Shown in pieces: positions 11,975 to 34,806 of a stretch of DNA of 64,000 nucleotides (its first letter is position 1; the number at the start of each line of letters is the position of its first letter). Under the pieces are notes generated by a model. It worked only from the letters and a program-made list of their open reading frames with translations, ran no database searches and was not told where the DNA came from. The DNA is taken from IMG/VR virus record IMGVR_UViG_3300042311_000920, positions 1-64,000 of that record. One strand, given 5' to 3'. The DNA comes from a virus. A program made the translations under genes and the position numbers.

Positions 11975-12430
11975 ATGAAAAAACTTTTTTTATTACTGTT
12001 ATTGCCTACTTTGGCAATTTCTCAAAACGTTGGAATCGGAACGAAAAACCCAACGGCTAAACTAGAAGTTAATGGAAACGTAAAACTAAAAGCGTCAATA
12101 GGTACGGTAAACGATACTATTTTAGTTATTCGAAATGGCGAAATAATGAAAGTGCCTGCATCTTTTTATCAATACACACCGCCTACAAATTGCCCCTTAC
12201 TCGTTACGGGTCAAGGTCAAAGTAATGGTTACTATTTGAAATTTCAATCAAACGTCCCAATTGTTAACCCAAGCGCTACACTCGTAATTCAGGGCAAAAC
12301 TTTTCAAGCAGCGGGAACGTGGGTAAGTAGCAATACCTACTTCTACTCTTACACTAATACGAGTGGTTCTCCTTTAAATATTAACCAGCCTTTTACCGTT
12401 AATTTTACGGGGCAAATTTGTCAGTATTAA
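11975..12430 (+). CDS. Secreted protein with a Bacteroidota VGIGT-type motif
   Basis: Signal peptide, then QNVGIGTKNPTAKLEVNG. Its TAA is the TAAC at which cassette array 1 begins. Confidence 0.65.
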   Translation: MKKLFLLLLLPTLAISQNVGIGTKNPTAKLEVNGNVKLKASIGTVNDTILVIRNGEIMKVPASFYQYTPPTNCPLLVTGQGQSNGYYLKFQSNVPIVNPSATLVIQGKTFQAAGTWVSSNTYFYSYTNTSGSPLNINQPFTVNFTGQICQY

Positions 12431-12557
12431 CAGCAAAGTATATAAGCAGTAGCGGAGTGAGTAGCACAGCACGTAAGAGGGAAGGCTGGAATTTCAAATG
12501 TGCATTGTCATTTCGGTATAACCAAGCCCCGCCCGCTATTTCTTATATTTATTGTTA
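12428..12557 (+). repeat. att-like hairpin site 1
   Basis: TAAC..TATAAGCAGTAGCGG / CCGCTATTTCTTATA..TGTTA. Confidence 0.65.
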
Positions 12558-12645
12558 TAAAATCCTTTTAATGTTTTACAACGTTTGGTGCTTTCTGTCT
12601 GTAGCGGATTTCAGCACCAAGCCATTAAAACACAAAACCAAAATT

Positions 12646-12873
12646 ATGGAATCACTTGAAAAATTTATAGAAAAAAGAATGCAACAATCGGAATTTTCAG
12701 CAATGATGATCCCTAGATATTTAGAAAAGCCAAATGCTTTTTTAGGTTCAAAAAATTACACTTTGGAAAAAGCGGCAGAATTTAAAGCAGATGCTGAGAA
12801 ATGCAAAGCATTAATGATGTTTTTAAAAGAATATAATAAACTTTTGAAAACCAAGCGTAACAATGGAAACTAA
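12646..12873 (+). CDS. Cassette hypothetical protein
   Basis: MESLEKFIEK..., TAA overlaps the next TAAC. Confidence 0.55.
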   Translation: MESLEKFIEKRMQQSEFSAMMIPRYLEKPNAFLGSKNYTLEKAAEFKADAEKCKALMMFLKEYNKLLKTKRNNGN

Positions 12874-12986
12874 CGTTGAATTATTGTCGTCAGGTGGCGA
12901 CAAACACAAAACAAAATATAAAAATGAAAGTAATGACAAAACATTCAGAGAATACCCAAACCGCCACTTGCGACAATAATTTGTTA
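12871..12986 (+). repeat. att-like hairpin site
   Basis: TAAC GTTG AATTATTGTCGTCAGGTGGCG / CGCCACTTGCGACAATAATT TGTTA. Confidence 0.8.
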
Positions 12987-13256
12987 GTAGATTATCATCC
13001 TTTTGACCTTAAGCCTCAACATAGAGATTTAGGAGGAAAAATACCTTTTGTTCATAATAAGACAGGTTTTACAGAATTGTATCCAAAAGCTTATAGTTAT
13101 CCGGCCAAAAGATGCGAAAATTGCTTGTTTTATAGAGTAGAGAGAAGTACTACTCCTGTTGCTTACTATTGTCGAATTGGTATGTTTTCAAGTTATGTAC
13201 AGGCAACCGCAAAAAGAGATGAAGACAAACCAACTGAATGTCAGGTTTATTGGTAA
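12924..13256 (+). CDS. Cassette hypothetical protein (CxxC)
   Basis: ATG inside the hairpin; cassette ends GTTAGTAGAT / ATCTACTAAC. Confidence 0.55.
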   Translation: MKVMTKHSENTQTATCDNNLLVDYHPFDLKPQHRDLGGKIPFVHNKTGFTELYPKAYSYPAKRCENCLFYRVERSTTPVAYYCRIGMFSSYVQATAKRDEDKPTECQVYW

Positions 13257-13263
13257 TATCTAC

Positions 13264-13390
13264 TAACGGATTGCGGTTTTGTCTTGTTGCCGAAAATACA
13301 AGACCAATTTTAATTTAAAAAACTATGAATACAAGTACAAAAAATTCATCAAATGAAGCCGAAAATGGCAATAAGTCAAAACCGCTGTTA
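13264..13390 (+). repeat. att-like hairpin site
   Basis: TAAC GGATT GCGGTTTTGTCTTGTTGCC / GGCAATAAGTCAAAACCGC T GTTA. Confidence 0.85.
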
Positions 13391-13558
13391 TATGATGGCA
13401 TTTTCGTAGGGCAGAAAGTTATTGATGAAGATTGCGATAAAGGAACGATAACAGAAATAGAAAATATCTACAATGTTTATGTAAAATATGATAATGGCGG
13501 AAGTGGTATTTCTTGTTTAAATGGTTGTTGCAACGACAGGTTGTATGCTATCATATAA
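13325..13558 (+). CDS. Cassette hypothetical protein
   Basis: ATG inside the hairpin; cassette ends GTTATATGATGGCAT / ATGCTATCATATAAC. Confidence 0.55.
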   Translation: MNTSTKNSSNEAENGNKSKPLLYDGIFVGQKVIDEDCDKGTITEIENIYNVYVKYDNGGSGISCLNGCCNDRLYAII

Positions 13559-13643
13559 CGTTTTCGGGCTTGGCGAAGTGCCGCTAACCGAAACTTAATT
13601 TTTAGCACTAACTGTCCTGCGGCATTTTGCCAAACCCGTGTTA
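13556..13643 (+). repeat. att-like hairpin site
   Basis: TAAC GTTTT CGGGCTTGGCGAAGTGCCGC / GCGGCATTTTGCCAAACCCG T GTTA. Confidence 0.85.
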
Positions 13644-13694
13644 TGGGATAGTTTTAAAAACCTTTTAGGGTGGGCATTTAAAAACAAAATTAAA

Positions 13695-14090
13695 ATGGGA
13701 ATGTACACAGAATTAATTTTTGGTGCTGAATTAAAAAAAGACACACCAAACCAAGTAATTGAAGCCTTGAAATATATGATAGGTGAAACAAAAGAAAAGC
13801 CAAGTGATTTCCCGTTACCTGATGGAAGATGTGAATGGTTATTTCAAGGCGGTAGCTATTACTTCGCTATCAATAATTCAGTAACAAAAATGTGGCTTGA
13901 TGATATTGATAAGCAATGGCATATTAGCACACGTTCAAATATTAAGAATTACGAAAGTGAAATTGAAACATTTTTAGACTGGATAAAGCCATACATTGAC
14001 GGTGGTTCTGGTGGTAGAGATTTATATGCCATTACCATTTATGAAGAACAAGACACACCAACTCTTTATTATTTGCACGATGCTGATTAG
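13695..14090 (+). CDS. Cassette hypothetical protein
   Basis: MGMYTELIFG..., flanked by a terminal inverted repeat of about 26 bp. Confidence 0.65.
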   Translation: MGMYTELIFGAELKKDTPNQVIEALKYMIGETKEKPSDFPLPDGRCEWLFQGGSYYFAINNSVTKMWLDDIDKQWHISTRSNIKNYESEIETFLDWIKPYIDGGSGGRDLYAITIYEEQDTPTLYYLHDAD

Positions 14091-14126
14091 TACGGTGCGG
14101 TGGGAAAAGGTTTTTAAAATTTCCCA

Positions 14127-14194
14127 TAACGTTTTGCAGATACACGCTGTGAGCGTTGAATTGAGGGAGGGGAAATAGCGTGTATCTGCTGTTA
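14127..14194 (+). repeat. att-like hairpin site
   Basis: TAAC GTTTT GCAGATACACGCT / AGCGTGTATCTGC T GTTA. Confidence 0.85.
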
Positions 14195-14234
14195 TGCCTT
14201 CGTTGCGGATTATTAACTTAAAAACTAAAATATA

Positions 14235-14561
14235 ATGGATAAATTTCCAAAATTCATCATAGAAGATGATAAATTAATACTAATGAAAGTAACATATCAT
14301 AAAGAGATTGCTACTGATTTAACTAAAGTAAAAGGCGGTGGTTGGTTTAAATATTTGCAACATACCGATATGTTTGTTTTTAGCGGAGAAAGCCACGATT
14401 TTGGCAAAGCTAAATTTGAAGATATAAAACAATGTGTTGCAAATTGCCAAGTATATTCAGATAACCGCCTTTACCGAAATATCAGTAATAATCACAATTT
14501 TGGATATGATACAGGAACAGAAATTATCGAATTGAAAACGGAATGTAGCAATGAGGCATAA
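14235..14561 (+). CDS. Cassette hypothetical protein
   Basis: Cassette ends GTTATGCCT / AGGCATAAC. Confidence 0.65.
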   Translation: MDKFPKFIIEDDKLILMKVTYHKEIATDLTKVKGGGWFKYLQHTDMFVFSGESHDFGKAKFEDIKQCVANCQVYSDNRLYRNISNNHNFGYDTGTEIIELKTECSNEA

Positions 14562-14686
14562 CGTTTTGCAGCTATATGTCTGTTGCCAAAAGTAAAAAAC
14601 AATGCTTCGATTAAGCACAAATAATCACAAGTACAAAACAAATTATAAATCAAGCCGAATGTGGCAATAAGTCAAAACCGCTGTTA
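14559..14686 (+). repeat. att-like hairpin site with mismatched (chimeric) arms
   Basis: Left arm GCAGCTATATGTCTGTTGCC, right arm GGCAATAAGTCAAAACCGC. Confidence 0.7.
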
Positions 14687-14700
14687 TAAGTAGTACGGAT

Positions 14701-14841
14701 ATGAAAATCACAAAAGAATTTTTAGAAAAAATAAAAAAAGAAAACAATATATTGATATTTAAACTAGCGTCGATTGAGGGTAAAATACCAAAAGAAATAC
14801 AAGACACATTACCTAAAGAAGTAATTACAAACAGATTGTAG
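14701..14841 (+). CDS. Cassette small protein (46 aa)
   Basis: MKITKEFLEKIKKENNILIF... fills the unit GTTATAAGTAGTAC / GTATTACTTATAAC. Confidence 0.5.
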   Translation: MKITKEFLEKIKKENNILIFKLASIEGKIPKEIQDTLPKEVITNRL

Positions 14842-14850
14842 TATTACTTA

Positions 14851-14942
14851 TAACGTTTTGCAGGTAGGCGATAGTGCCGCTTACCACAAACTTTAAATCA
14901 AAGCACTCAGGCTCATAGCGGCATTTTGCCTACCTGCTGTTA
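14851..14942 (+). repeat. att-like hairpin site
   Basis: TAAC GTTTT GCAGGTAGGCGATAGTGCCGCT / AGCGGCATTTTGCCTACCTGC T GTTA. Confidence 0.85.
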
Positions 14943-14996
14943 GGTGTCTGTAAAAAATAAATTTAGCGTGGGCTTAAACTTTAAATAACAAACAAA

Positions 14997-15482
14997 ATGG
15001 AATTACAAGAATTAATTGAAAAGAACAAACTGCAATTACGCACACAAGAAGATATTTCTGCAAAGTTTGACGAATTGCAAAATTCAGGTGGCTTTATGGA
15101 TTTTCGACCAGAAGTATTGATTAACTTTTTATCATTTGAAAACGCAAAGCCACATTTGAAAGAAGACTACGTGAAAGAAGTTGAAGCAGGAACAAAGCAA
15201 TGGGAGCAACATACTACGGTTGAAAAGGCTGCCGAAGAGTTTTTGGACTATATGAAATTTGCTTGGGGTAAAGCCGAAGATGAACGTGGAATTTCAGCAA
15301 GCCGTTCAGTTCAAAAACTAGGAATGTGGCTTTGGATTATGAACCGAGATGATTTGCGTAGAGTTATTGAGGATGATGATTTGTACAATCCTTATGGCGC
15401 ACCTGCTTTAATTGAAGTTTGCAATCAAATGGGTATAAAAGTTCCAAACTCATTAATCGAATTTGCTAAGATAAAATGCTAA
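14997..15482 (+). CDS. Cassette hypothetical protein
   Basis: 161 aa; cassette ends GTTAGGTG / CACCTAAC. Confidence 0.65.
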   Translation: MELQELIEKNKLQLRTQEDISAKFDELQNSGGFMDFRPEVLINFLSFENAKPHLKEDYVKEVEAGTKQWEQHTTVEKAAEEFLDYMKFAWGKAEDERGISASRSVQKLGMWLWIMNRDDLRRVIEDDDLYNPYGAPALIEVCNQMGIKVPNSLIEFAKIKC

Positions 15483-15522
15483 TTATGTTGGGTGCGGTGG
15501 GAAATTTATTTTTTATTGCACC

Positions 15523-15649
15523 TAACATTCTCGTGGCTTTGTCTTGTTGCCGAAAATACAAGACCAACTTTAAATTTATCACTATGAAAAATGACACAAA
15601 ACCAGCATTACCCGAAGCCGAAAACGGCAATAAGTCAAAACCACTGTTA
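15523..15649 (+). repeat. att-like hairpin site (same family as 13264)
   Basis: GTGGCTTTGTCTTGTTGCCG / CGGCAATAAGTCAAAACCAC T GTTA. Confidence 0.85.
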
Positions 15650-16021
15650 CAAGCAGTGTTTTTCGCTCCTTATTTGCCTTATTCGGTAAAAATAGCTTAT
15701 GATTATTTTGGAGATACACAAGAAATAGCAACATTAATAGGTGTTGAAGATAGAAATGGAGAAACTAGATTGCAAATTAATACTGGCGGAAGTGCTTTGT
15801 TAAAATATTGCAAACTTGTTTTAAAACCTTTTTCAGATTATACTGAAATATTAGAAATAACAGATGAAATGAATGATTATGAAATCCAAATGATTGAAGA
15901 TAATCCTGATTTAATAAAACGACTACCTTATGATGTGGTTGAAAAAATGTTTAAAAATCACATTGATGTTTTCGGACTTATTAATTTCGGTTTAGCCGTT
16001 TCAATTCACGATGTTGTGTAA
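15584..16021 (+). CDS. Cassette hypothetical phage protein
   Basis: ATG inside the hairpin; cassette ends GTTACAAGCAGTGTT / AACATTGCTTGTAAC. Confidence 0.6.
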   Translation: MKNDTKPALPEAENGNKSKPLLQAVFFAPYLPYSVKIAYDYFGDTQEIATLIGVEDRNGETRLQINTGGSALLKYCKLVLKPFSDYTEILEITDEMNDYEIQMIEDNPDLIKRLPYDVVEKMFKNHIDVFGLINFGLAVSIHDVV

Positions 16022-16030
16022 CATTGCTTG

Positions 16031-16159
16031 TAACGTTCCGCAACTACACGTCTGTTGCGTAAAAGTACAAAATTACCTTTCAGTTTAACACGGAATTGAA
16101 AGGTACAAAAACATCACTAAATTAATCACAAATCTAGCAATAGCGTGTAATTGCTGTTA
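16031..16159 (+). repeat. att-like hairpin site
   Basis: GCAACTACACGTCTGTTGC / GCAATAGCGTGTAATTGC T GTTA. Confidence 0.8.
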
Positions 16160-16174
16160 TCAAATCGGTTTATT

Positions 16175-16501
16175 ATGAAAAGATTACCTGTTATACACGA
16201 TGTAAAAGTTTGGAGTAGATTTTGGCAAAATCTAACTATCGAAGAAAAAAACTTTGAATTAAGAAAATTAGATAGAGATTATCAAGTAAATGATTATTTA
16301 CGATTGAATTTCTATTCAGAAGATTTAAAAGAAATTATAGAAACTGAAAAGCCTAAAATTGCTAAAATTCAATACATTTTAAAAGATGCTGAAATGTTTG
16401 GATTGCAAAAAGATTACGGAATATTATCCTTAAAATATTATAGTTCTTTTTCTTTTCAAGAAAGGGTAGAGTTTTTGAAAACGCAAACCCAAACTGTTTG
16501 A
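16175..16501 (+). CDS. Cassette DUF3850/ASCH-like protein
   Basis: HDVK...KNFELRKLDRDYQVNDYLRL motif. Confidence 0.7.
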   Translation: MKRLPVIHDVKVWSRFWQNLTIEEKNFELRKLDRDYQVNDYLRLNFYSEDLKEIIETEKPKIAKIQYILKDAEMFGLQKDYGILSLKYYSSFSFQERVEFLKTQTQTV

Positions 16502-16627
16502 TAACGGCTACGCATATACGCAGTAGCGGATTTAAAACACAAAAGTTTAATTAACAAATAAAAGTAAAATAGAATGAAAAAGTTTAAAATTAGCACAGTA
16601 GCCGCTATTGCCGTATATGCGATGTTA
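16502..16627 (+). repeat. att-like hairpin site
   Basis: CGCATATACGCAGTAGCGG / CCGCTATTGCCGTATATGCG AT GTTA. Confidence 0.85.
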
Positions 16628-16915
16628 GCGGTTGTTTTTACTTCTTGTGATGATGCAGGGGTAACTTCAAAAAGATTAAATGGCGATGAACAAAATTTGC
16701 CTGATGAACTGAAAGGACTAAAAATTTATTCAGTTTCGACAGGTAATGGGAATTATGTAAAAGTTGCCGTTTTAGACGGTAAGATAAACTCAACAACTTA
16801 CCAAGTAGGTAAAGTTCAAGAATCGACAGTAATAGTAAATAAACAAAACGGCAAACTTATAGAGGTTAGCCAAATTTTGGTTGAAAACGACAGCGTGATT
16901 GTCTGCCGAAAATAA
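16574..16915 (+). CDS. Cassette lipoprotein
   Basis: MKKFKISTVAAIAVYAMLAVVFTSC lipoprotein signal. Confidence 0.65.
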   Translation: MKKFKISTVAAIAVYAMLAVVFTSCDDAGVTSKRLNGDEQNLPDELKGLKIYSVSTGNGNYVKVAVLDGKINSTTYQVGKVQESTVIVNKQNGKLIEVSQILVENDSVIVCRK

Positions 16916-16919
16916 CCGC

Positions 16920-17038
16920 TAACGGTTCTCGGCTTTGTCGTCGTTGCGACTTATGAAAACTAATATTAATATTTTAAACTAAACGAAATGAAAAACGATA
17001 ATTCAACTAAACAAAGCAATGCGTCAAAACCGATGTTA
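16920..17038 (+). repeat. att-like hairpin site
   Basis: TCGGCTTTGTCGTCGTTGC / GCAATGCGTCAAAACCGA T GTTA. Confidence 0.8.
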
Positions 17039-17272
17039 GCGGAAGGCTGGATTTCTGTTAACGATAGAAGACCAAATGAAAATCAAACAGTATGGTGTTA
17101 TTCAGAAAACACATTTAACATATTTGTAGGAGTTTATATTTACCTTACAAATGAAGGTTGGTTTTGGGCTTCAAGTAACGGTTGCTTTTATATTGAAGAG
17201 GGAAAAATAATAACAGAATGTGAGATTGATGATTTTGATGTTACACATTGGTTTCCCGCTCCAGTTCTGTAG
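16988..17272 (+). CDS. Cassette DUF551-like protein
   Basis: WISVNDRRP...VTHW motif; ATG inside the hairpin. Confidence 0.7.
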   Translation: MKNDNSTKQSNASKPMLAEGWISVNDRRPNENQTVWCYSENTFNIFVGVYIYLTNEGWFWASSNGCFYIEEGKIITECEIDDFDVTHWFPAPVL

Positions 17273-17280
17273 CTTTCCGC

Positions 17281-17407
17281 TAACGTTTCTCGGCTTTGCT
17301 TTGTTGCGGAAAAGTAAGCCAAAACTTTAGATTTAAAAACAAAATTAACAAATACAAACCAAACATTCAGTTAAGCCTAAAACCGCAATAGAGCAAAACC
17401 GATGTTA
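17281..17407 (+). repeat. att-like hairpin site
   Basis: TCGGCTTTGCTTTGTTGCGG / CCGCAATAGAGCAAAACCGA T GTTA. Confidence 0.85.
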
Positions 17408-17499
17408 TAAGTAGCTTTTATTATGGATGAAATAATTTTATGTTTAGGAATGATTGTTGGATTAATATTATTTATAATTAGTATAAAACAAGAGTAAAA

Positions 17500-17772
17500 A
17501 TGGAAAGTAAAATAGAATATTTTAATAGATACAGTGATACGCATTTGCCTGATAAAATGAATAGATGGGCAAGAATAGCTGTATTTAAAAACATTAGAAT
17601 TGCTTGGATAAGTAAACATAAGATTAAAGAGCAAGATACATTTTGTGTAACGTGCCATTTTCCAACTATGCAAAATGATACAGCAAACGAAAGTAAAGTT
17701 TTCTTTAGTTTAGAAGATGCAAAAGATTTTGTTTCTGAAAGATGGAATTTTTTTTTAACCGCAGTTTCTTAA
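17500..17772 (+). CDS. Cassette hypothetical protein
   Basis: 90 aa, preceded in the same unit by a 24-codon hydrophobic ORF at 17423-17497. Confidence 0.6.
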   Translation: MESKIEYFNRYSDTHLPDKMNRWARIAVFKNIRIAWISKHKIKEQDTFCVTCHFPTMQNDTANESKVFFSLEDAKDFVSERWNFFLTAVS

Positions 17773-17781
17773 AGTTACTTA

Positions 17782-17854
17782 TAACGTTCCCACGATAGGG
17801 GCTGTTTGCCTATTTACAAAGTTGCTTTCGGCAAATAGCACTTATCGTGTGTTG
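17782..17854 (+). repeat. att-like hairpin site
   Basis: CACGATAGGGGCTGTTTGCC / GGCAAATAGCACTTATCGTG T GTTG. Confidence 0.85.
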
Positions 17855-17903
17855 TGCGATGGTGCTTTTAAATACAAATATTAACCAATTAAATTACAAT
17901 AAA

Positions 17904-18119
17904 ATGTCAAAACGAAAATACTCAAAAATGTCGGACAAAGTTGAAATAACACATTATGAATGTACTAATAGAAAGTGCAAGTGGCAAGGAACTAATAAAC
18001 AAAAAGGAACTCAATATTTAGATAATGGATTTACGGAATTGATTTGCCCTAAATGCTGTAATAATGAATTTTACGGATTACTTCCGTCTTATGTAGATTC
18101 TATTTCTGCGGTTTCGTAG
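17904..18119 (+). CDS. Cassette zinc-ribbon-like protein
   Basis: CxxxxC...CPKC; cassette ends GTTGTGCGA / TCGCACAAC. Confidence 0.55.
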   Translation: MSKRKYSKMSDKVEITHYECTNRKCKWQGTNKQKGTQYLDNGFTELICPKCCNNEFYGLLPSYVDSISAVS

Positions 18120-18128
18120 CATCTCGCA

Positions 18129-18254
18129 CAACGTATCGGTGCTATACGATGTGGCGGATTTTCGGCAGAAAGCCCAATACGAAGCACCACAGTTGAATTA
18201 AATAAAAATGTTTAATCGAAGCACGTCAGCCGCCATATTGTATAGCACTTGTTA
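18129..18254 (+). repeat. att-like hairpin site
   Basis: CAAC GTATC GGTGCTATACGATGTGGCGG / CCGCCATATTGTATAGCACT T GTTA. Confidence 0.85.
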
Positions 18255-18285
18255 GCGGATGCCGTTTCTTCACAACAATTTTAAA

Positions 18286-18522
18286 ATGGAATATAAAGCA
18301 CAAGAACTCAAAAAAGATTTAATAACAAAGCGTTGCATTGATAACGATATGACAATGGATGAAGCCTGTAAAGAAATAGGAATTTCAAAAGCCACTTTGT
18401 CAAGGTTGGAAAAGTCTAAACTGCCAGATGTTGAAACATTAGGTAAGGTTTGCACTTGGTTAGGAACTGAACCAAATAAATACTTTGTCATTATTCGTAA
18501 GCGTCAAGACGGTTTCCGCTAA
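18286..18522 (+). CDS. Cassette XRE-family HTH regulator
   Basis: TMDEACKEIGISKATLSRLEK...PDVETL. Confidence 0.8.
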   Translation: MEYKAQELKKDLITKRCIDNDMTMDEACKEIGISKATLSRLEKSKLPDVETLGKVCTWLGTEPNKYFVIIRKRQDGFR

Positions 18523-18644
18523 CCGTTCGGGGCTTGTAGCAGTAGGGGATTAGAAGCACTACTGTTCAACCTACCACAAAAGCTGATTAGAAGTACACAG
18601 CTTAATTAAAGCACTTCTGCCCCTATTGCTACAAACCCTTGTTA
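18520..18644 (+). repeat. att-like hairpin site
   Basis: GGGCTTGTAGCAGTAGGGG / CCCCTATTGCTACAAACCC TT GTTA. Confidence 0.85.
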
Positions 18645-18694
18645 GCAGAAGTGGCGGTTAATTTACAAGGGTGTCAATTTTAAAACGTAAAAAA

Positions 18695-18997
18695 ATGATT
18701 AAAAATTCAGAACAACCAATCAGTCCAATGCCTTACCAAAATCAAGATGGCTCTATTCAACACGATGTTTATTTTGGATTAACTAAAAGAGAACATATTG
18801 CTATTGAAGCAATGAAGGGCTTTTTAGCAAACCCATCTGAAACAGAAGTAAGTTCAACTTATGTATTGGAAGCAATCGGGTTGCCAAAAGAAACTAAGTA
18901 TTCATTTGATGAGCATTACACAAAGTATGTTTCACAAATAGCAGTCAAATATGCCGATGCCTTATTAAAGGAATTGTCAATCGGAGACGGTCGGTAG
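18695..18997 (+). CDS. Cassette hypothetical phage protein
   Basis: GLTKREHIAIEAMKG...AVKYADALLKEL, a motif common in phage proteins. Confidence 0.65.
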   Translation: MIKNSEQPISPMPYQNQDGSIQHDVYFGLTKREHIAIEAMKGFLANPSETEVSSTYVLEAIGLPKETKYSFDEHYTKYVSQIAVKYADALLKELSIGDGR

Positions 18998-19007
18998 CCA
19001 TTTCTGC

Positions 19008-19131
19008 TAACGGCTACGGCTATGTGCAGTAGCGGATTTAAAACACTAAACTTTAAATATAGAACGAATGATGATAGTAGAACAAATTTTGAATAACGCA
19101 CCGAACCCGCTATTGCATATAGCCGATGTTA
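19008..19131 (+). repeat. att-like hairpin site
   Basis: CGGCTATGTGCAGTAGCGG / CCGCTATTGCATATAGCCG AT GTTA. Confidence 0.85.
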
Positions 19132-19859
19132 GTGGCGGTGCTTTGTTCAATGCTGATTGTATGGATATTTTACCTCTTATTCCTAATAAATCGGTTCAAC
19201 TTATTTTGGCTGATTTGCCTTACGGAACAACAAGTTGTGCGTGGGATTGTATTATTCCATTTGACAAACTTTGGGCTGAATATGGTAGAATAATAAAAGA
19301 CAATGGTGCAATAGTTTTAACGGCTTCACAACCATTTACAAGTGCCTTAGTAAACAGTAAAATTGAATGGTTTAAATATGCTTTAGTTTGGGAAAAAGAA
19401 AGACCAAGCAACCCTGCACACGCAAAGATTAGATTTATGAAATGGCACGAAGATATTTTGATTTTTTCACCTAATAAAGAAAAGTTTAATCCACAAAAAG
19501 AAAAACGATTAGAGCAAAATAAAAGGAATAACAAACAAGGTGTATTTCATAAATCTGATGCTTATGGAGAACAAACAATACCACAAGGCGATGGGATGGC
19601 TGATGAAAAGTATTTGAGTAGCATATTAAAGGTAAATGTTGAAAGAGGGTTGCACCCAACGCAAAAGCCGTTAAAACTATTTAAAACATTGATTAGTGCC
19701 TTTACGGATGAAAATGATTATGTACTTGATAATACAATGGGAGTAGGCACAACTTGTTTAGGAGCAAAAGAGTTGAACCGTTCCTTTATTGGAATTGAAA
19801 AAGAGGTAAAATATTATGATTTGGCAGTTGGTCGGGTGTTCGGTCAGCATTGCCACTAA
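19068..19859 (+). CDS. Cassette beta-class N6A/N4C DNA methyltransferase
   Basis: DLPY, HPTQKP and DNTMGVGTT motifs. Confidence 0.9.
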   Translation: MMIVEQILNNAPNPLLHIADVSGGALFNADCMDILPLIPNKSVQLILADLPYGTTSCAWDCIIPFDKLWAEYGRIIKDNGAIVLTASQPFTSALVNSKIEWFKYALVWEKERPSNPAHAKIRFMKWHEDILIFSPNKEKFNPQKEKRLEQNKRNNKQGVFHKSDAYGEQTIPQGDGMADEKYLSSILKVNVERGLHPTQKPLKLFKTLISAFTDENDYVLDNTMGVGTTCLGAKELNRSFIGIEKEVKYYDLAVGRVFGQHCH

Positions 19860-19943
19860 CGGTTTCGGGCTTGGCGAAGGTGGGCTTGTAGGATGCTCAA
19901 TTTTAGCAGAATGTTTCTGCCCACTTTTGCCAAACCCGTGTTA
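19857..19943 (+). repeat. att-like hairpin site
   Basis: CGGGCTTGGCGAAGGTGGGC / GCCCACTTTTGCCAAACCCG T GTTA. Confidence 0.85.
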
Positions 19944-20013
19944 TGTGTAGTTGCGGTTGTTTATCAGGAACTTAAATTGAAAACGAATAAAAAAGAATTA
20001 GAAAAAAGAAGCG

Positions 20014-20715
20014 ATGGAATTAAATAAAATATATAACGAAGATTGCATTGAAGGTATGAAGAAAATACCATCTGCGAGTATTGATATGGTTCTAACTGAC
20101 CCACCATATACATCTCCAACTGTTCACGCATTCGGAAGGCAAAAAGTAAACCGATTATCAGATTTAGCAATACAAGAATTTTACTTTGCTGAAATCAAAA
20201 AGGAATGGGAACGAATACTGAAACCCAATGCACCTGTTTTGATTTTCTGCGATGATATTTATAGTGCTGTTTTGATGGGTTTGTTTTACGAATGGCAACA
20301 AAAGAATTTAGTTATTTGGGATAAGGGTAGAATTGGAATGGGAAACCCGTTTAGAAAACAGCACGAACTTGTATTTTATGCAAACAGAGGAAGTATTGAA
20401 TTGAATAAAACCAATATGAGCCACATTCCTACTGTAATAAAAGAAACGCTAACAAAAGAACATCACGGAGCAGAAAAGCCAGTAAAACTATTGATGAAAC
20501 TGATTGACGGACTTACAAAAGAAAATGCAACAGTTTTGGATTGCTTTATGGGAAGTGGCTCAACTGCGATTGCTTGTTTAGAAACGAAAAGAAACTATAT
20601 CGGTTTTGAACTTGATAAAAGCTATTATGAAACTTCACAAAATCGTATTTCTTCCTTGTGCGGTGGGCTTTTTTCTAATTCTTTTTCAACGGAAAGTTCA
20701 ATTGAAACGGGATGA
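20014..20715 (+). CDS. Cassette beta-class N6A/N4C DNA methyltransferase
   Basis: DPPY, HGAEKP and DCFMGSGST motifs. Confidence 0.9.
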   Translation: MELNKIYNEDCIEGMKKIPSASIDMVLTDPPYTSPTVHAFGRQKVNRLSDLAIQEFYFAEIKKEWERILKPNAPVLIFCDDIYSAVLMGLFYEWQQKNLVIWDKGRIGMGNPFRKQHELVFYANRGSIELNKTNMSHIPTVIKETLTKEHHGAEKPVKLLMKLIDGLTKENATVLDCFMGSGSTAIACLETKRNYIGFELDKSYYETSQNRISSLCGGLFSNSFSTESSIETG

Positions 20716-20728
20716 TAGCAATTACACA

Positions 20729-20777
20729 TAACGTTTTGCAGATTGGCGGTCGTTTTAATGCCGCCAATGTGCTGTTA
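20729..20777 (+). repeat. Minimal att-like hairpin site (49 bp)
   Basis: TAAC GTTTT GCAGATTGGCGG / CCGCCAATGTGC T GTTA. Confidence 0.8.
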
Positions 20778-20839
20778 CAGGTAGTAGGGATTTCTACCAC
20801 AAAACTTAATTAGAAGTACAAACAAAAAAGAATTTAAAA

Positions 20840-21715
20840 ATGAGCGAGGGCAAAAAAAGAAAAATTAAAGTATTATCATTATTCGATGGTATGAGTTGCG
20901 GACAAATAGCTTTAAACAAGCAAGGGATTGAATATGATGAATATTTTGCTTCTGAAATTGACAAAGAAGCTATAAAGGTAACTATGAAAAACTACCCAAA
21001 CACAAAACAATTAGGTAGTATTACGGAACTAAAAGGAATTGATTTGCCAAAAATAGATTTGCTATTTGGCGGAAGCCCTTGTCAAAGTTTTAGTAGAGCA
21101 GGAGATAACAGTGGATTTGACGGAAGTAGTAAATTGTTTTGGGAATTTGTAAGAGTTTTGAATGAAGTAGAACCTACTTACTTTTTACTTGAAAATGTAA
21201 TTATGAAAAAAGAATGGGAAGATGTAATTACGGAAGCGTTAGGAGTGAAACCTATTGAGATTACAAGTGCTAAATTTGTACCACAAGCAAGACGAAGATT
21301 ATATTGGACTAATATACCCAATGTAACGCAACCGAAACAATCTGAATACACTGTTTTAGACTTTATTGATGGTGATGGGTTTCCGACAAGTTGCGGAATT
21401 GATAGAGTTTTTAAACGCAAAGAAATATTTAATACTTTGACGGCAACTTATTGGAAAGGAATTAGAGGAAGTTCAAGACCAGCAGTAAGTATTAGAGAAG
21501 GATTTTTAGATGCGGACAGAGAAGCACACCGTATGCTAACACCAACAGAATGTGAACGACTACAAACAGTACCTATTGGATATACGGATTGTGTTGCTAA
21601 AACAAATAGATATAAGATGCTTGGTAATGGTTGGACAGTTGATGTGATTGCTCATATTTTTTCTTTTTTAAAGGAGGGGAAATTTTTAAATTCTTTTTCT
21701 GACGAAAATGTTTAA
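20840..21715 (+). CDS. Cassette C5-cytosine DNA methyltransferase
   Basis: LFDGMSCG, GGSPCQSFS, ENV, QARRRLYW, ECERLQ and LGNGW motifs. Confidence 0.9.
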   Translation: MSEGKKRKIKVLSLFDGMSCGQIALNKQGIEYDEYFASEIDKEAIKVTMKNYPNTKQLGSITELKGIDLPKIDLLFGGSPCQSFSRAGDNSGFDGSSKLFWEFVRVLNEVEPTYFLLENVIMKKEWEDVITEALGVKPIEITSAKFVPQARRRLYWTNIPNVTQPKQSEYTVLDFIDGDGFPTSCGIDRVFKRKEIFNTLTATYWKGIRGSSRPAVSIREGFLDADREAHRMLTPTECERLQTVPIGYTDCVAKTNRYKMLGNGWTVDVIAHIFSFLKEGKFLNSFSDENV

Positions 21716-21741
21716 TCAAAGCACTTCACCGCTATTACCTG

Positions 21742-21861
21742 TAACGGTTCTCGGCTTGGCGAAGTTGCCGAACACAAAACTTCATTAGAATTACAAATGT
21801 TTAAATCAAAGATAGAATGTCAAACGAAGCACAAAACGGCAATTTTGCCAAACCGATGTTA
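21742..21861 (+). repeat. att-like hairpin site
   Basis: TCGGCTTGGCGAAGTTGCCG / CGGCAATTTTGCCAAACCGA T GTTA. Confidence 0.85.
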
Positions 21862-22461
21862 GCACCAGTACGGGTTTTAAATCTATACGCTGGAATTGGA
21901 GGAAACCGAAAACATTGGGAAAATGTAGAAGTAACTGCAATAGAATACAACGAAGAAATTGCAAATGTTTACAAGAAATTACATCCAAACGATAATGTGA
22001 TAGTTACTGATGCACACGATTATTTGGCTAAAAATTGGAGAGAGTTTGATTTTATATGGAGTTCGCCACCATGTCAAAGTCATAGCAAAGTAAGAATGAT
22101 GGCAAGTAAAAGCGGAAGTTATGATGCTGTAATGCCTGATATGAAATTGTGGAGTGAAATAATTTTTTTACAGAACTTTACTAAAAACACAGATATAAAG
22201 TTTGTAGTTGAAAATGTAAAGCCTTATTACGAACCATTTGTAAAACCAACTGCAAAACTTGGTAGGCATTTATTTTGGGCAAACTTTGAAATACCTGAAG
22301 CCGAAATAAAAGATGGATTAACCCACAATGAAAGAGGAAGTTCTGAAAAAGGTTATTTTGACTTACGAGAATATAAAATAAAACACAGAAAAGACCAAAT
22401 AATTCGTAATTGCGTTGACCCAAATGTAGGACAATATGTTCTCGGTTGTGCAGTTTCGTAG
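21817..22461 (+). CDS. Cassette short C5-methyltransferase-like protein
   Basis: LYAGIGG, SPPCQ and ENV motifs; ATG inside the hairpin. Confidence 0.8.
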   Translation: MSNEAQNGNFAKPMLAPVRVLNLYAGIGGNRKHWENVEVTAIEYNEEIANVYKKLHPNDNVIVTDAHDYLAKNWREFDFIWSSPPCQSHSKVRMMASKSGSYDAVMPDMKLWSEIIFLQNFTKNTDIKFVVENVKPYYEPFVKPTAKLGRHLFWANFEIPEAEIKDGLTHNERGSSEKGYFDLREYKIKHRKDQIIRNCVDPNVGQYVLGCAVS

Positions 22462-22470
22462 TATTGGTGC

Positions 22471-22494
22471 TAACTAATCGCTAATCGCTATAAA
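22471..22494. other. Conserved array-terminal site (attI-like candidate)
   Basis: TAACTAATCGCTAATCGCTATAAA, 20/24 identical to 34783-34806. Confidence 0.6.
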
Positions 22495-22505: not shown

Positions 22506-22730
22506 ATGAATACAATATCAGTAAGTTATGATTTGAAATGGCAAATAAAAAGTAATGAAAAATACAAGTGGACAACTTGCAAGAAACTTTTCAACACTCA
22601 AACAGGTCGCCAAATAAAAAAGACAATGAATTGCAGAAGTATTGGCTACTGGATAGGAAAACAATTTGTCACTTTGGAAAATTTAAAAAATCAACTAGAA
22701 TTAATCCCAAAAGAAAATACACCTTTTTAA
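22506..22730 (+). CDS. Hypothetical basic protein
   Basis: 74-aa ORF directly after the array-terminal site. Confidence 0.55.
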   Translation: MNTISVSYDLKWQIKSNEKYKWTTCKKLFNTQTGRQIKKTMNCRSIGYWIGKQFVTLENLKNQLELIPKENTPF

Positions 22731-23471: not shown

Positions 23472-24770
23472 ATGGCAACAATTAAATTTACCGTGCGAGG
23501 GAAGAAAAACCCGTCGCCCATCTACATCCGTTTTGCAGAGGGAAAAAATATAGACCTTCACGAAAAATCTGGACTTTATGTAAATCCAATTTTTTGGGAC
23601 CAGAAAAAGCAACAGATCCGGAAAGTTCTCGAAGTAGCAAACAAAGACGATATCAATTCCAATCTTCGGAAACTTGAAATTTATTTGATTGATGAATTTA
23701 ATCAATCATTTATGACCGGCCAAGTAATAAATAAGCAATGGCTGTTGCAATCTATCCAAAAATTCTTTAATCGCCCTAAAAACGAAGAAAAACTACAAAA
23801 TTTAAAGCATCACATTTATTTTTCAGATTACGCCCAACACTGGATTGATAACAAGGCTAAAAAATTCAAAGTTGCCGCCAATAAATATATGGACGAAACA
23901 ACGATAGGACATTATCAGCAAGTTTTGGATAACTTCAAAGATTTCGAAGGAAAAAACAAAGTAAAACTATGCGATTTAAGCAACTTAAAATTAGACGAGT
24001 TCTCTTTATACCTTTCAGATACTAAAAGCTATTCAGAATCTACTAGCAAGCGTAAAGTTGGACGCGTTAAGTTCTTTTGCGCACGTGCCGAAAGCGACAA
24101 TTTAGAAGTCAACAAACAATACAAAGAAAGAGTTTTCGTCAAAGAGCAAGAAATCGAATACAAGCAGCCTTATTTAAACGAAGATGAAATTAACAACATT
24201 TTTAAATTGAAACTAGAACCTAATTGTCCAATGGATCATGTTCGAGATAATTTAATAATTGGATTATGGACTGGCTTAAGGGTGTCAGACTTTCTAACGA
24301 GATTAAACGTCTCCAATATTCAAGATGGTTTTATCAAAATAAAAACAATGAAAACAAAAACATTTGTCAATATTCCGATACACTCACAAGTAGCTTTTAT
24401 TTTGAATAAAAGAAACGGACAACTACCTAATAAAATATCAGAGCAAAAGTTTAACGACCACATAAAAACCTTGACGCAGATAGTAGGTATTGATGATTTA
24501 ATGATTGGAGGAGTGATGAAAGTTGACGAAAAAACTAAAGTTAAAAGGAAAGTAATTGATACATATAAAAAGTGGGAGTTAATGACCTCTCACGTTGGGC
24601 GCAGATCATTTGCTACAAATTTGTTCGGAAAAGTATCTAATAAAACCATTTGTGACGTATGCGGCTGGTCAAATGAAGATATGCTTTTTGCTTACAACAA
24701 AACCACGAACATGGAATCAGCGAATGTACTTAAGGATTACTGGGATAAAAAATACGAATCAAAAATATAA
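23472..24770 (+). CDS. int: Tyrosine recombinase/integrase of Bacteroidota type (arm-binding, SAM-like and catalytic domains)
   Basis: TGLRVSD (R), KTMKT (K), SHVGRRSFAT (HxxR), CGWS (W), FAY (Y). Confidence 0.9.
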   Translation: MATIKFTVRGKKNPSPIYIRFAEGKNIDLHEKSGLYVNPIFWDQKKQQIRKVLEVANKDDINSNLRKLEIYLIDEFNQSFMTGQVINKQWLLQSIQKFFNRPKNEEKLQNLKHHIYFSDYAQHWIDNKAKKFKVAANKYMDETTIGHYQQVLDNFKDFEGKNKVKLCDLSNLKLDEFSLYLSDTKSYSESTSKRKVGRVKFFCARAESDNLEVNKQYKERVFVKEQEIEYKQPYLNEDEINNIFKLKLEPNCPMDHVRDNLIIGLWTGLRVSDFLTRLNVSNIQDGFIKIKTMKTKTFVNIPIHSQVAFILNKRNGQLPNKISEQKFNDHIKTLTQIVGIDDLMIGGVMKVDEKTKVKRKVIDTYKKWELMTSHVGRRSFATNLFGKVSNKTICDVCGWSNEDMLFAYNKTTNMESANVLKDYWDKKYESKI

Positions 24771-31446: not shown

Positions 31447-31626
31447 ATGACAACTTACGGACAAATAGTTGACGGTAAAAGAATAACACTAAATGACTTT
31501 GAAAAACAAGTTCGAGAAGGCGTTTCTGGCATCGTAACTAACCTAACATCAGCGGAAATAGCCAAACGTTACCGTAAAGGCGAATCCGTGGATAATGCAG
31601 TGAGTTATTTTATAATGCACAAGTAA
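31447..31626 (+). CDS. Small hypothetical protein (59 aa)
   Basis: MTTYGQIVDGKR...; its TAA is the TAAC at which array 2 begins. Confidence 0.5.
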   Translation: MTTYGQIVDGKRITLNDFEKQVREGVSGIVTNLTSAEIAKRYRKGESVDNAVSYFIMHK

Positions 31627-31704
31627 CGTCCTGTGGCTTTGTCTAGTGGCGTTGAATTAAGACTAGACACAACAAAAATACACTAATTATTAAATTTAAA
31701 AATT

Positions 31705-32025
31705 ATGATTTCAGATAACACCCAATCCAAGCCATTAAACAAAACGACTGTTAGCGGTTCGGTTACTGACAATATGACCTTTAAAGACGCTTTAAAGTCA
31801 TTAGGAATAGAAGATTATGCTGAACGGATTTTTAATAGTAATTCACACGGAGAATTATTTCATATTCAACAGTATTTTACTTTAGCAAAGGTTCTAAAAG
31901 GAAATTCAGAGTGGTTTAGAGAATGGTTTGAAAAAGTTGTGAAATGGGCAGAAGAAAATTGGGAACGACCAGAATCAATTTTCCAACACATTAGTCAAAT
32001 TTTAGTAGATAGTCGTTCTAACTGA
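31705..32025 (+). CDS. Cassette hypothetical protein
   Basis: ATG inside hairpin 31624-31753. Confidence 0.6.
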   Translation: MISDNTQSKPLNKTTVSGSVTDNMTFKDALKSLGIEDYAERIFNSNSHGELFHIQQYFTLAKVLKGNSEWFREWFEKVVKWAEENWERPESIFQHISQILVDSRSN

Positions 32026-32031
32026 CGGCTA

Positions 32032-32148
32032 ACTGATTTACCTGATTACAACGGGAAAAGAGCTTTTGGATTAGGTTCGGTAGACGAAATTTGGATTATA
32101 GATGATTTTGAATATTGTACGGAATATCCTGATTTACCGATGCGATAA
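32032..32148 (+). pseudogene. 3' remnant of a cassette gene
   Basis: Open frame TDLPDYNGKRAFGLGSVDEIWIIDDFEYCTEYPDLPMR* with no start codon and no hairpin. Confidence 0.5.
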
Positions 32149-32313
32149 CATTACCACTAACGTTTTGCAACTTGCATTAGTGCCTTGCAAACAAGCGAGT
32201 AGTTTCGGATTAAGACTAAACACAACAAAGAAAAACAAAATATAAATTAATAACCAAGCCAAAGGCATTGATGCAAATTGCTGTTATCACTTCGGCTTTT
32301 TATTCCAAAAAAT

Positions 32314-32556
32314 ATGACAACAGATGAAATGCTTATCGAAATTGTAAATTACAATTACAAATCCGCTGGTTTTCCTTATGTATTTTTAGACTACTCACAA
32401 TCTTTTAAATATTGGGCAATTACTTGGCGAAATCCAGTTGATTTTTCAAATGAAAAACAAACTAATGCACCAACTCCAAATGAGGCGTGTAAAAAAGCAC
32501 TCGAATTTATAAAAAGCAATCCGAGTATTTTTAGCCGTTCCAACCAAGCTGAGTGA
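32314..32556 (+). CDS. Cassette hypothetical protein
   Basis: Cassette ends GTTATCACTTCGGCTT / AAGCTGAGTGATAAC. Confidence 0.6.
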   Translation: MTTDEMLIEIVNYNYKSAGFPYVFLDYSQSFKYWAITWRNPVDFSNEKQTNAPTPNEACKKALEFIKSNPSIFSRSNQAE

Positions 32557-32717
32557 TAACGTTTCCACGCTTGGCGAAGGTGGCGATTTTAACCACAAAT
32601 ACTGATGCGTAGAACGAAATTTGAATATAGCAATAATTGTCAAGCGGAGTACTGCACCGCCACTTTTGCCAAACGTGTGTTATGCGTTCGGCTTTTTTGG
32701 AACTTAAAAATTTGATT

Positions 32718-33107
32718 ATGAAAGAAAGTATTATTAGATGTCCAATTTGCAGTAAGATTACAGCGTTGGAAAAAAATGGACGAACTCAAAAAATAGAGCA
32801 AGTTCACGGAATTTGTTGGGATAAAATTGGCTATTCGATTGGTGGGTGGGGAAGCCGAAGAGATTTTATTCACGGATTTTCTGGCGAAGTTTGTAATGAT
32901 TGTTTCACAGCTTTAAAAACAAAAATCAATGAATTTAAAGAAGTTGTTAACCAAAGAACAAACTCCTGCGAAGAAGGGGTATGTATTTACAAAACATCAA
33001 AAGACAAATCAACAGGGGATAACCTGTCTGACCTGCAACAAGACGAGTTACAATCCAAACGACATAAAACACCTTTATTGCGGTTGCTGTCATCGTTTTC
33101 ACGATAG
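32718..33107 (+). CDS. Cassette Cys-rich hypothetical protein
   Basis: CPIC...CNDC; cassette ends GTTATGCGTTCGGCTT / AAGCTGACGCATAAC. Confidence 0.55.
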   Translation: MKESIIRCPICSKITALEKNGRTQKIEQVHGICWDKIGYSIGGWGSRRDFIHGFSGEVCNDCFTALKTKINEFKEVVNQRTNSCEEGVCIYKTSKDKSTGDNLSDLQQDELQSKRHKTPLLRLLSSFSR

Positions 33108-33120
33108 CGTTGTAAGCTGA
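32929..33120 (+). CDS. Small zinc-finger-like protein overlapping the previous ORF
   Basis: ITCLTCNKTSYNPNDIKHLYCGCCHRFH. Confidence 0.5.
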   Translation: MNLKKLLTKEQTPAKKGYVFTKHQKTNQQGITCLTCNKTSYNPNDIKHLYCGCCHRFHDSVVS

Positions 33121-33187
33121 CGCATAACGTTTCGCGGCTACACGAGGTTTGGGACTAAATTAGCAATAATTTTTAAATTTAATACAA

Positions 33188-34021
33188 ATGATAGAGATAC
33201 AAAACCAACTTGAAATTAAGCCTGAAACGGCAATAGCACAAAACCGATGTTACCAGCAGTGTTTTTTGTCGGACAATTTGGATTTAATGAAAACAATAGA
33301 AAGCAATACCATTGATTTGATTTACTGCGATATTCTTTACGGAACTGGCAGAAACTTTAGCGACTACCAAGACTTAAAACCGATTAGAAGTGAAATTGAA
33401 GCACATTATTTACCACGATTAAAAGAAATGTATCGAATACTAAAACCAACAGGGAGTATTTATTTACAAATGGATACAAGAATAAACCATTGGATGCGAA
33501 TTTTAATGGATGATATTTTTGGCTATGATAGAATGTTGAATGAAATTGTAGTTTGTATTAGTAAAGGAAATCAAACAAACAAACACTTTGCAAAAAGGCA
33601 CGATATTTTACTTTATTACACAAAAACAAAAGAATGGATTTATAATTTAGATGCTGTTTCAAAAGAAAATCCTGAACATAAAAGGTATAAATACCAAGAT
33701 GAAAAAGGAATGTATAGATGGCATATTGAAAGCATCAAAGATTATAAAATGTATCTTAAAAAACAAAATATAAACGATGTTTGGAGTGATGTAGGAATTG
33801 TTCAAGGCAACTCAATAGAAAATACAGGTTATTCTACACAAAAACCAAAATCATTGATTGAACGAATTATAAAAGCAAGTAGTAACGAAGGAGATTTAGT
33901 TGCTGATTTCTATGCTGGAAGTTTTACAACAGCAGTGGTTTGTAAAGAACTAAATAGGAATTTTATCGGATGCGATATTAATCCTTTGGCTTTGGAGATT
34001 TCAAAACAACGATTGGCTTAA
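33188..34021 (+). CDS. Cassette beta-class DNA methyltransferase (DILY variant)
   Basis: IDLIYCDILY, YSTQKP and DFYAGSFTT motifs. Confidence 0.85.
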   Translation: MIEIQNQLEIKPETAIAQNRCYQQCFLSDNLDLMKTIESNTIDLIYCDILYGTGRNFSDYQDLKPIRSEIEAHYLPRLKEMYRILKPTGSIYLQMDTRINHWMRILMDDIFGYDRMLNEIVVCISKGNQTNKHFAKRHDILLYYTKTKEWIYNLDAVSKENPEHKRYKYQDEKGMYRWHIESIKDYKMYLKKQNINDVWSDVGIVQGNSIENTGYSTQKPKSLIERIIKASSNEGDLVADFYAGSFTTAVVCKELNRNFIGCDINPLALEISKQRLA

Positions 34022-34785: not shown

Positions 34786-34806
34786 CTAATTTATAACCGC
34801 TATAAA
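34783..34806. other. Conserved array-terminal site (attI-like candidate)
   Basis: TAACTAATTTATAACCGCTATAAA. Confidence 0.6.

Follow-up and report, generated by a model that had tools for sequence, protein, structure and literature searches.

A 24-bp attI-like candidate site closes two integron-like cassette arrays in a flavobacterial-type phage

The phage analyzed here is of flavobacterial type and carries two integron-like cassette arrays, both of which close on copies of one 24-bp site. We consider it probable that this site is the attI-like end site of phage integron-like arrays whose cassettes are exchanged by site-specific recombination. This reading draws on the observed anatomy of the arrays, covariation within their hairpins, cassette-specific inverted repeats that extend to the terminal TAAC, association of the site with array ends in other viral contigs, and a one-cassette polymorphism at the site. 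With respect to position and role, the attI-like interpretation holds for the most part, and the 24-bp class is one of at least two end-site classes of a phage-borne integron-like cassette system.

Results

Two arrays of hairpins and small genes occupy the plus strand of the phage. The window, by which we mean the whole stretch of 64,000 nt that was analyzed, comprises bases 1–64000 of a virus record of 73,439 nt, complete according to CheckV. The plus strand between approximately 8 and 41.5 kb is occupied by early, replication, and accessory genes. From 41.5 kb on, the minus strand carries the structural genes, and a 2,497-aa open reading frame (ORF; 41537–49030, minus strand) stands where the structural module begins. 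At the DNA level, Flavobacterium phages are the closest relatives in culture, the likeness being confined to a methyltransferase gene. Array 1 (12428–21861, plus strand) holds 19 hairpin units with a small gene after each, the units starting at 12428, 12871, 13264, 13556, 14127, 14559, 14851, 15523, 16031, 16502, 16920, 17281, 17782, 18129, 18520, 19008, 19857, 20729, and 21742. Its plus-strand cargo includes N6/N4 methyltransferases (19068–19859 and 20014–20715), C5 methyltransferases (20840–21715 and 21817–22461), and DUF3850 and DUF551 proteins. Array 2 (31624–34156, plus strand) holds five units (starting at 31624, 32158, 32557, 33125, and 34031), and its cargo, on the same strand, includes an N6/N4 methyltransferase (33188–34021) and a short C5-methyltransferase-like gene (34111–34785). 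Two tandem NUMOD4/HNH homing-endonuclease genes lie right after array 2 (35246–36561), and HNH genes also adjoin the arrays of the cultured phages Freya and P12002L (below).

The hairpin units have the form of attC sites. Searched with a covariance model derived from the units, the 73,439-nt record has 24 of them, all on the plus strand and all within arrays 1 and 2. They are 49–130 nt long, lie between small plus-strand genes, and follow one design: a 5′ TAAC-G, a bulge of 3–5 nt confined to the 5′ side, a stem of 4 bp, a C x A mismatch (14/23 aligned units), a second stem of some 14 bp, a variable loop rich in A, and a return strand that ends in T-GTTA. Across 23 units, 90.7% of stem cells are paired, compared with 35–52% when the partner columns are slid, and 16/18 stem pairs show compensatory changes. 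AAC/GTT is invariant (23/23) and the outer T-A pair nearly so (21/23), so that covariation on these 23 units identifies what characterizes attC, an imperfect hairpin with a conserved outer AAC...GTT and little else. The arrays likewise have the make-up of a CALIN (at least two attC-type sites in series with no IntI nearby), with 19 and 5 units in a record that holds no IntI. Two G.T pairs are fixed or nearly so (G5.T140 in 20/23 units and G25.T125 in 23/23), and together with the bulge on the 5′ arm only and the C x A mismatch they form asymmetries that may correspond to the unpaired spacer and extrahelical bases by which attC sets strand and orientation. Over all wobble pairs, G.T outnumbers A.C by 59 to 9, or by 16 to 9 when the two fixed positions are left aside, a bias that is at most suggestive as an indicator of strand choice.

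Hairpins frequently include the start codon of their gene, which then lies in the A-rich loop. The similar units at 16502 and 19008 extend over the N-terminal parts of two proteins that are unrelated and are read in different frames; conservation of the units therefore acts at the nucleic-acid level. A short unit form of 48–49 nt with the loop GGTCGTTTTAATGCC occurs in many loci: it lies at 20729–20777 in the window and on the minus strand of P12002L (L108, 29960–30095), and its scores are near-identical (30.4–30.8 bits) in L012, L020, L021, L031, L039, and L043. The first unit and cassette of array 1 (12428–12870) are atypical, with a low model score (52.8 bits), and they could represent the former distal end of array 1.

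Each array terminates at a copy of the 24-bp site. Site 1 (22471–22494, TAACTAATCGCTAATCGCTATAAA) and site 2 (34783–34806, TAACTAATTTATAACCGCTATAAA), both on the plus strand, consist of TAAC followed by three 7-nt repeats; beyond site 2, the conservation seen in relatives runs on through TGTATTACAA to 34816. The initial annotation had described the two 24-mers as 20/24 identical, as starting at the array-terminal AAC, and as lacking a hairpin, and it was right on all of these points. The sites differ at four positions, TAAC comes directly after the last array gene in both cases, and folding of either strand as single-stranded DNA yields −1.1 to −3.1 kcal/mol, with z-scores of +0.12 to −0.90. 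With up to three mismatches allowed, the pattern proposed in that annotation matches only sites 1 and 2 in the window, where shuffled sequences predict 0.02 matches; this count is circular, the pattern having been derived from both sites, and independent support comes from other contigs. The pattern test and the recurrence in other contigs rule out chance or low complexity as the source of the likeness. The 9-mer CGCTATAAA is not enriched in the window (29 found, 21.6 expected) and is therefore no general promoter word.

Small ORFs follow both sites and share a C-terminal ending, PK-x(3–6)-PF, as had been noticed before. After site 1, a 74-aa ORF (22506–22730, plus strand; phrog_35066, no family assignment) ends in IPKENTPF. 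After site 2, the ending is VPKPKKSDCPF, and the 38-aa ORF that bears it (34887–35003) is the C-terminal piece of a conserved gene of about 60 aa (34818–35003). The ending (I/V)PK-x(3–6)-PF is common to these two seemingly unrelated small proteins and to intact homologues of the second, and it may be a short interaction motif.

Cassette-specific inverted repeats place the crossover at the AAC/GTT triplet. Each gene is bracketed by a repeat of the form GTTA-N11...N11′-TAAC that is particular to its cassette, in nearly every internal cassette and up to both terminal TAACs. Over the first six nucleotides, cognate arms match at 5.25/6 positions on average (21/24 pairs at five or more), compared with 2.12/6 for non-cognate pairs (2% at five or more) and 2.2/6 for the two flanks of one unit; the first cassette of array 1 (12558–12870) is without the repeat (0/6). 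Positions 1–5 are Watson-Crick paired in 22–23/23 pairs, position 7 is G.T in 15/23, positions 8–11 are paired in 16–18/23, and pairing past position 11 is random. The fourth base of the outer box also co-varies across the gene (GTTG...CAAC at 17854/18129).

In the last cassette of array 1, the plus-strand arms are GTTA + GCACCAGTACG (21858–21872) and AGTATTGGTGC + TAAC (22460–22474), this TAAC being the first four nucleotides of site 1. In the last cassette of array 2 they are GTTA + TAAACAGGCTT (34153–34167) and AAGCTTGTTTA + TAAC (34772–34786), likewise on the plus strand, with 10/11 Watson-Crick pairs and the conserved G.T at position 7. The parts of these repeats nearest the boxes read GTTA-GCACCA...TGGTGC-TAAC at 22471 and GTTA-TAAACA...TGTTTA-TAAC at 34783. 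The terminal TAACs thus take part in cassette repeats, and both are therefore real cassette junctions. By the classical integron argument, bases outside the AAC/GTT triplet belong to the neighboring cassette and the crossover therefore falls at the triplet; the junctions of Freya_1/Freya_10, G002/G003, and L078/L107 (below) also share only AAC or TAAC. The arrays open with a hairpin and close with a gene, TAAC, and non-hairpin DNA, so a cassette is a hairpin plus a gene and the fixed site stands at the downstream end. The previously proposed reading of the minus strand, on which the site runs into GTT like an attI that faces its array, agrees with a fixed end at TAAC and with 11-nt repeats that reach both terminal TAACs.

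Many cassettes, including window 22450–22470 and those of many other loci, end in the module (AATCGAAGCAC)...GTAGYATT-N5 before TAAC, in which ATT forms positions 6–8 of the inverted repeat and carries the fixed G.T. Three loci (L013, L019, and L049) share ...CGTAGTATTGGTGC before TAAC with the last cassette of array 1. We considered and dropped the idea that they end in that same cassette, since their sequences differ farther upstream and since the module is common to many cassette ends.

The site recurs in other viral contigs and is tied to array ends. The strict 24-mer is present in three other viral contigs, G001 and G002/G003 among them, behind different, unrelated last genes. The generalized site TAACTA-N3-GCTAA-N2-GCTATAAA occupies 57 distinct places in public viral contigs (two scans pooled), with the consensus ..ATT..... 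up to the TAAC boundary and TAACTA-yyN-GCTAAyM-GCTATAAA from it onwards. A right-anchored scan (18-nt right-flank anchor) yielded 45 loci, of which 44 were aligned (L005, near-identical to L004, was omitted), and 37/44 have xAAC and the left half in register with unrelated sequence before them; a left-anchored scan, in which the right flank was left free, yielded 47 loci. Among sites with at least 1.5 kb of upstream sequence, 29/38 have a unit no more than 3 kb upstream, compared with 2/38 shuffled segments, and only 5/49 have a unit within 3 kb downstream. Complementarity of at least 5 over N6 with the last detected unit is found at 21/29 unit-bearing sites. Weak units that escaped detection are a possible cause of the misses, namely the 9/38 sites with no detected unit within 3 kb upstream and the 8/29 with no N6 match. 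The association with array ends that the initial annotation had proposed to test holds for the generalized site; the pattern it gave is too narrow, positions 7–8 being variable. That annotation had also counted against itself any arrays of this type lacking the motif, or motifs lying mostly away from arrays: most arrays do end otherwise, yet the sites themselves are array-linked in the proportion just given.

Gain or loss of one cassette is visible exactly at the site. The contigs L078 and L107 show 100% identity across the 937 nt upstream and 99% across the 756 nt downstream; exactly between two TAACs at the site, L107 has one extra cassette of 354 bp. The extra cassette is made up of a hairpin, GTTA-GCAGTA, a 68-codon ORF, and TACTGC. 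These alignments support the view that the 24-bp site is an array-terminal recombination junction, with one-cassette gain or loss exactly at its TAAC. Two further contigs, L109 (5.8 kb) and L118 (7.5 kb), carry two sites of the 24-bp class each, in opposite orientation.

A second, larger class of array end lies beside a small tyrosine recombinase gene. This end, TAACTATTATATATA, was found at 34 distinct sites, 40–61 nt (mostly 47 or 56) before the recombinase ATG, and the two classes share TAACTA. In G002/G003, which also carry the 24-bp site, another array stops 47 nt before the gene for a 267-aa tyrosine recombinase. G002 and G003 are 99.98% identical downstream, while their last cassettes differ, and identity resumes exactly at TAAC. 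Relatives of the 267-aa recombinase occur at 53 loci, and in the 51 that were searched for units all 169 of 169 matches lie on the recombinase strand. The linked arrays have 2–17 units and, at every locus with upstream DNA, stop 0.2–1.2 kb short of the gene. The pairs L043/L044, L053/L054, and L032/L033 are 92–100% identical across the recombinase gene and differ in their proximal cassettes, with L053 and L054 having a distal segment in common. None of the 51 recombinase-linked loci contains the strict 24-mer; only three chance-like matches with four mismatches occur in them, so the 24-mer is not universal to such arrays.

Judged by profile scores and alignments, the 267-aa enzyme is Xer/IntI-like and falls below all curated cut-offs. 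It scores 171 bits against the XerA model (cut-off 220), 156 bits against XerC (cut-off 335), 152 bits against XerD (cut-off 330), and 150 bits against the integron integrase model TIGR02249 (cut-off 265). Its alignment to XerA (4a8e) runs end to end in one block, while that to IntI4 (2a3v) falls into two blocks separated by 31 residues, compared with 79 in IntI4. Given this short stretch and the one-block XerA alignment, the enzyme is therefore strictly no integron integrase.

No enzyme of this kind is encoded in the phage record. The sole tyrosine recombinase there is a 432-aa arm-type integrase (23472–24770, plus strand), which is probably a lysogeny integrase. No homologue of the small recombinase was found in the window by tblastn at E values up to 10, and there is no further PF00589 match in the whole record. 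PHROGs and Pfam searches of the neighboring genes gave no further recombinase; the matches were confined to HNH endonucleases, an antirepressor, an exonuclease, and proteins of unknown function. An Rfam search over 11–36 kb gave no relevant family and none that matches the hairpin units. An integron integrase with the IntI-specific extra domain is seen neither in the window record nor in the relatives’ recombinase. The association between the 24-bp site and recombinase genes that had been suggested earlier is absent from the 35 other records with this class, none of which (0/35) has a PF00589 match, including seven with an estimated completeness of at least 90%; a gene for the Xer/IntI-like enzyme is present in G002/G003, two phages that also carry the site. 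From the lack of an Xer-like recombinase in this record and the 35 others, we infer that the enzyme acts in trans or that the arrays are passive. The claim of a primary, sequence-recognized insertion site stands as far as the terminal junction and the gain and loss of cassettes at its TAAC are concerned, while no recombinase that would recognize the site is encoded here.

In most relatives, a small gene of RHH-like appearance comes next after the site. The gene encodes about 60 aa and starts 11–25 nt (mostly 12–14) past the site; its resemblance rests on phrog_25647, a weak DUF6290 match (E 1.5e-3 and 19 bits, under the cut-off of 27), and our own reading of its beta-strand/helix pattern. In the window, the gene after site 2 (34818–35003, plus strand; phrog_25647 in relatives) has an in-frame TAA at codon 15. 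The gene in L074 stops at the same position and the G002/G003 copy is frameshifted; the gene has thus been broken repeatedly, with an intact site ahead of it each time. Three 7-nt repeats make up the right two thirds of the 24-mer, in the register nnCTAnn x3 in the consensus. These repeats are probably protein-binding sites, for the recombinase or for the RHH-like protein, and the right part of the 24-mer may serve as an operator, as an accessory site of recombination, or as both. By way of comparison, direct repeats in attI1 bind the recombinase. A gene for a 151-aa secreted-looking protein (MKKLF...) lies immediately left of array 1 in the window (11975–12430), where it is preceded by AAACTAATCATTTTTTACAATC, which bears a faint likeness to the 24-bp site; in G002/G003, the same gene adjoins the 24-bp site and its RHH remnant on their right (L006:15904–16359).

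Related arrays are present in cultured phages. A homologue with 37% identity to the recombinase is encoded by the Polaribacter phages Freya_1 to Freya_10, whose genomes vary in length by up to 4.9 kb. Freya_1 has an empty site, TTTAC-AAC-ACCCC, 50 nt before the integrase ATG; at this very point Freya_10 carries an insert of 4,942 bp that contains 12 genes and is flanked by AAC on both sides, and other Freya isolates have subsets of the Freya_10 insert. The Polaribacter phages named Danklef, which belong to a different genus from Freya and infect a different host strain, contain 38% of the queried 4.2 kb of the Freya_10 (L062) array at 97% identity, upstream of the integrase. Cassettes thus appear, to judge from these identities, to be exchanged between phage genera. 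The small integrases of Freya-type phages are read as a possible sign of lysogeny in the parts of Bartlau et al. 2021 consulted here.

One cultured phage has previously been connected with integron sites. According to the consulted parts of Qi et al. 2023 (PMC9892861), Polaribacter phage P12002L carries an integrase-less attC cluster with two methyltransferase genes, and IntI1 was able to recombine one of these attC sites with attI1. In P12002L, short hairpins of the window design, with the loop of unit 20729, lie between methyltransferase genes and are candidates for the published attC1 and attC2, and the array ends in ...TTGTGCC/TAAC. Beyond Qi et al. 2023 (PMC9892861), we found no description of this system in searches of the literature.

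Discussion

Our favored model assigns a distinct role to each part of the array. On the plus strand, a cassette is an attC-like imperfect hairpin followed by one gene, and the 24-bp site would be the non-hairpin, attI-like partner at the downstream end of each array. Cassettes would enter or leave at this site by a crossover that falls within or beside the AAC of TAAC; taken on the minus strand, the site reads ...GTTA into the array. The exchange would be carried out by a tyrosine recombinase of the Xer/IntI kind, such as the one encoded beside the other class of array end, and this phage would have to obtain it in trans, whether from its host, from a prophage, or from a co-infecting phage.

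Integrons are regarded as bacterial, IntI-dependent devices, and the phage arrays resemble them in several respects. Both have single-gene cassettes, imperfect hairpins with AAC/GTT, and cassette-specific complementarity of core sites at the triplet; both have one non-hairpin site at one array end, where cassettes are gained and lost; and the end site of the sister class adjoins a tyrosine recombinase gene. The differences are equally plain. There is no IntI, and the relatives’ enzyme has 267 aa, one stretch being about 48 residues shorter than in IntI4. Phage cassette genes point towards the end site, whereas those of integrons point away; the hairpin of a phage cassette stands on the 5′ side of its gene, overlapping its start codon; and the relatives’ recombinase gene is co-directional with the array and downstream of it. 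The phage cassette repeat covers 15 nt with a fixed G.T, and the window has no linked recombinase at all. An attI beside a divergent intI, with cassettes transcribed away from it, is thus not what the window holds, since no recombinase gene adjoins its sites.

Comparison with other systems is informative as well. Elements that exploit Xer and dif use a simple Xer-like recombinase, possibly supplied in trans, and in CTX-type phages a folded single strand. The phage arrays would share with them the Xer-like enzyme, a possible dependence on a recombinase in trans, and the use of a folded single strand, and differ in that we identified no dif-like two-arm site in the window. The CALIN of P12002L is close to the window, its methyltransferase genes being split by hairpins of the same design with no integrase. 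In the consulted parts of the P12002L account (PMC9892861), the sites are treated as ordinary attC usable by IntI1, and those parts describe no dedicated small recombinase, terminal site, or inverted gene orientation.

Several alternatives explain part of the evidence. Likeness between the two sites could be the mere flank of a duplicated gene, given that the last genes (21817–22461 and 34111–34785) are paralogous short C5 methyltransferases, approximately 70% identical over 98 nt (family D8) and both PF00145. However, the 10–25 nt between gene end and TAAC differ between sites 1 and 2, and the site follows unrelated last genes in G001, G002/G003, and dozens of other contigs, a recurrence that refutes this idea, to which we give next to no credence. 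A role as cassette recombinase for the 432-aa integrase, encoded 1 kb downstream of site 1, with the 24-mer as its target, is highly improbable. Although the minus-strand order of integrase gene, site, and array near site 1 is that of an integron, no integrase lies near site 2, none of the 35 other records with the 24-bp class carries any tyrosine recombinase, and the protein has the arm-binding architecture of lysogeny integrases, with a best match to a Xer-type model of merely 24 bits. We regard it as unlikely that the 24-mer is mainly an operator or promoter of the RHH-like gene, which the arrays abut and of which only TAAC serves recombination. This reading draws on the position of the ORF (phrog_25647), whose ATG lies at a short distance beyond the site at most loci, on the visible nnCTAnn x3 register, and on conservation of the site where the spacer and the RHH-like protein diverge. 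Yet unrelated genes follow site 1 of the window and the sites in L067, L082, L087, L102, L106, L132, L003, L089, and L120, the sites are intact where the gene is broken (the window, L074, and G002/G003), and an operator leaves it unexplained that array ends fall exactly here. The operator and recombination-site readings are compatible, and both can hold together.

For the stem-loops of T4-type phages, gene shuffling by homologous recombination has been proposed, and units and end sites might similarly be RNA signals (processing signals, terminators, or translation insulators) among which genes are shuffled by homologous recombination. All units lie on the coding strand, the start codon is often in the A-rich loop, and the invariant G.T pairs, together with the excess of G.T over A.C pairs reported above, would be G.U in RNA. 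Against this, cassette-specific 11-nt inverted repeats around genes are unexpected for RNA signals, indel junctions fall on AAC without flanking homology on the cassette side, arrays are tightly linked to a tyrosine recombinase gene, and there is no Rfam match and no folding of the terminal site. We judge this explanation improbable, while an additional RNA role of the hairpins is possible.

Site-specific exchange at an attI-like end site, the reading we prefer, bears on the biology of these phages. Phages with such arrays appear to own a gene-capture system. More specifically, and only tentatively, Flavobacteriia phages may have an integron-like capture system of their own, Xer-like rather than IntI-dependent, with cassettes that bring their own translation start; in this possible but doubtful combination, the 24-bp class would be its recombinase-less form, with a heptad site and an RHH-like protein that recruits a recombinase in trans from the host or another phage. 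Integron logic, that is folded hairpins, an AAC/GTT crossover, and one fixed end, recurs in many phage contigs, with departures that include a small Xer-like enzyme or none in cis, reversed genes, and hairpins that double as translation starts. The temperate life style that the consulted parts of Bartlau et al. 2021 read from small integrases may need revisiting. If a recombinase is indeed recruited in trans in this way, the cassettes, largely DNA methyltransferases and small proteins of unknown function, would form a pool shared among co-infecting phages. The methyltransferases of the cargo are plausibly anti-restriction genes, and the system would explain fast swapping of such genes. Freya_1 to Freya_10 and Danklef, which differ by whole cassettes, offer a laboratory system for the mechanism.
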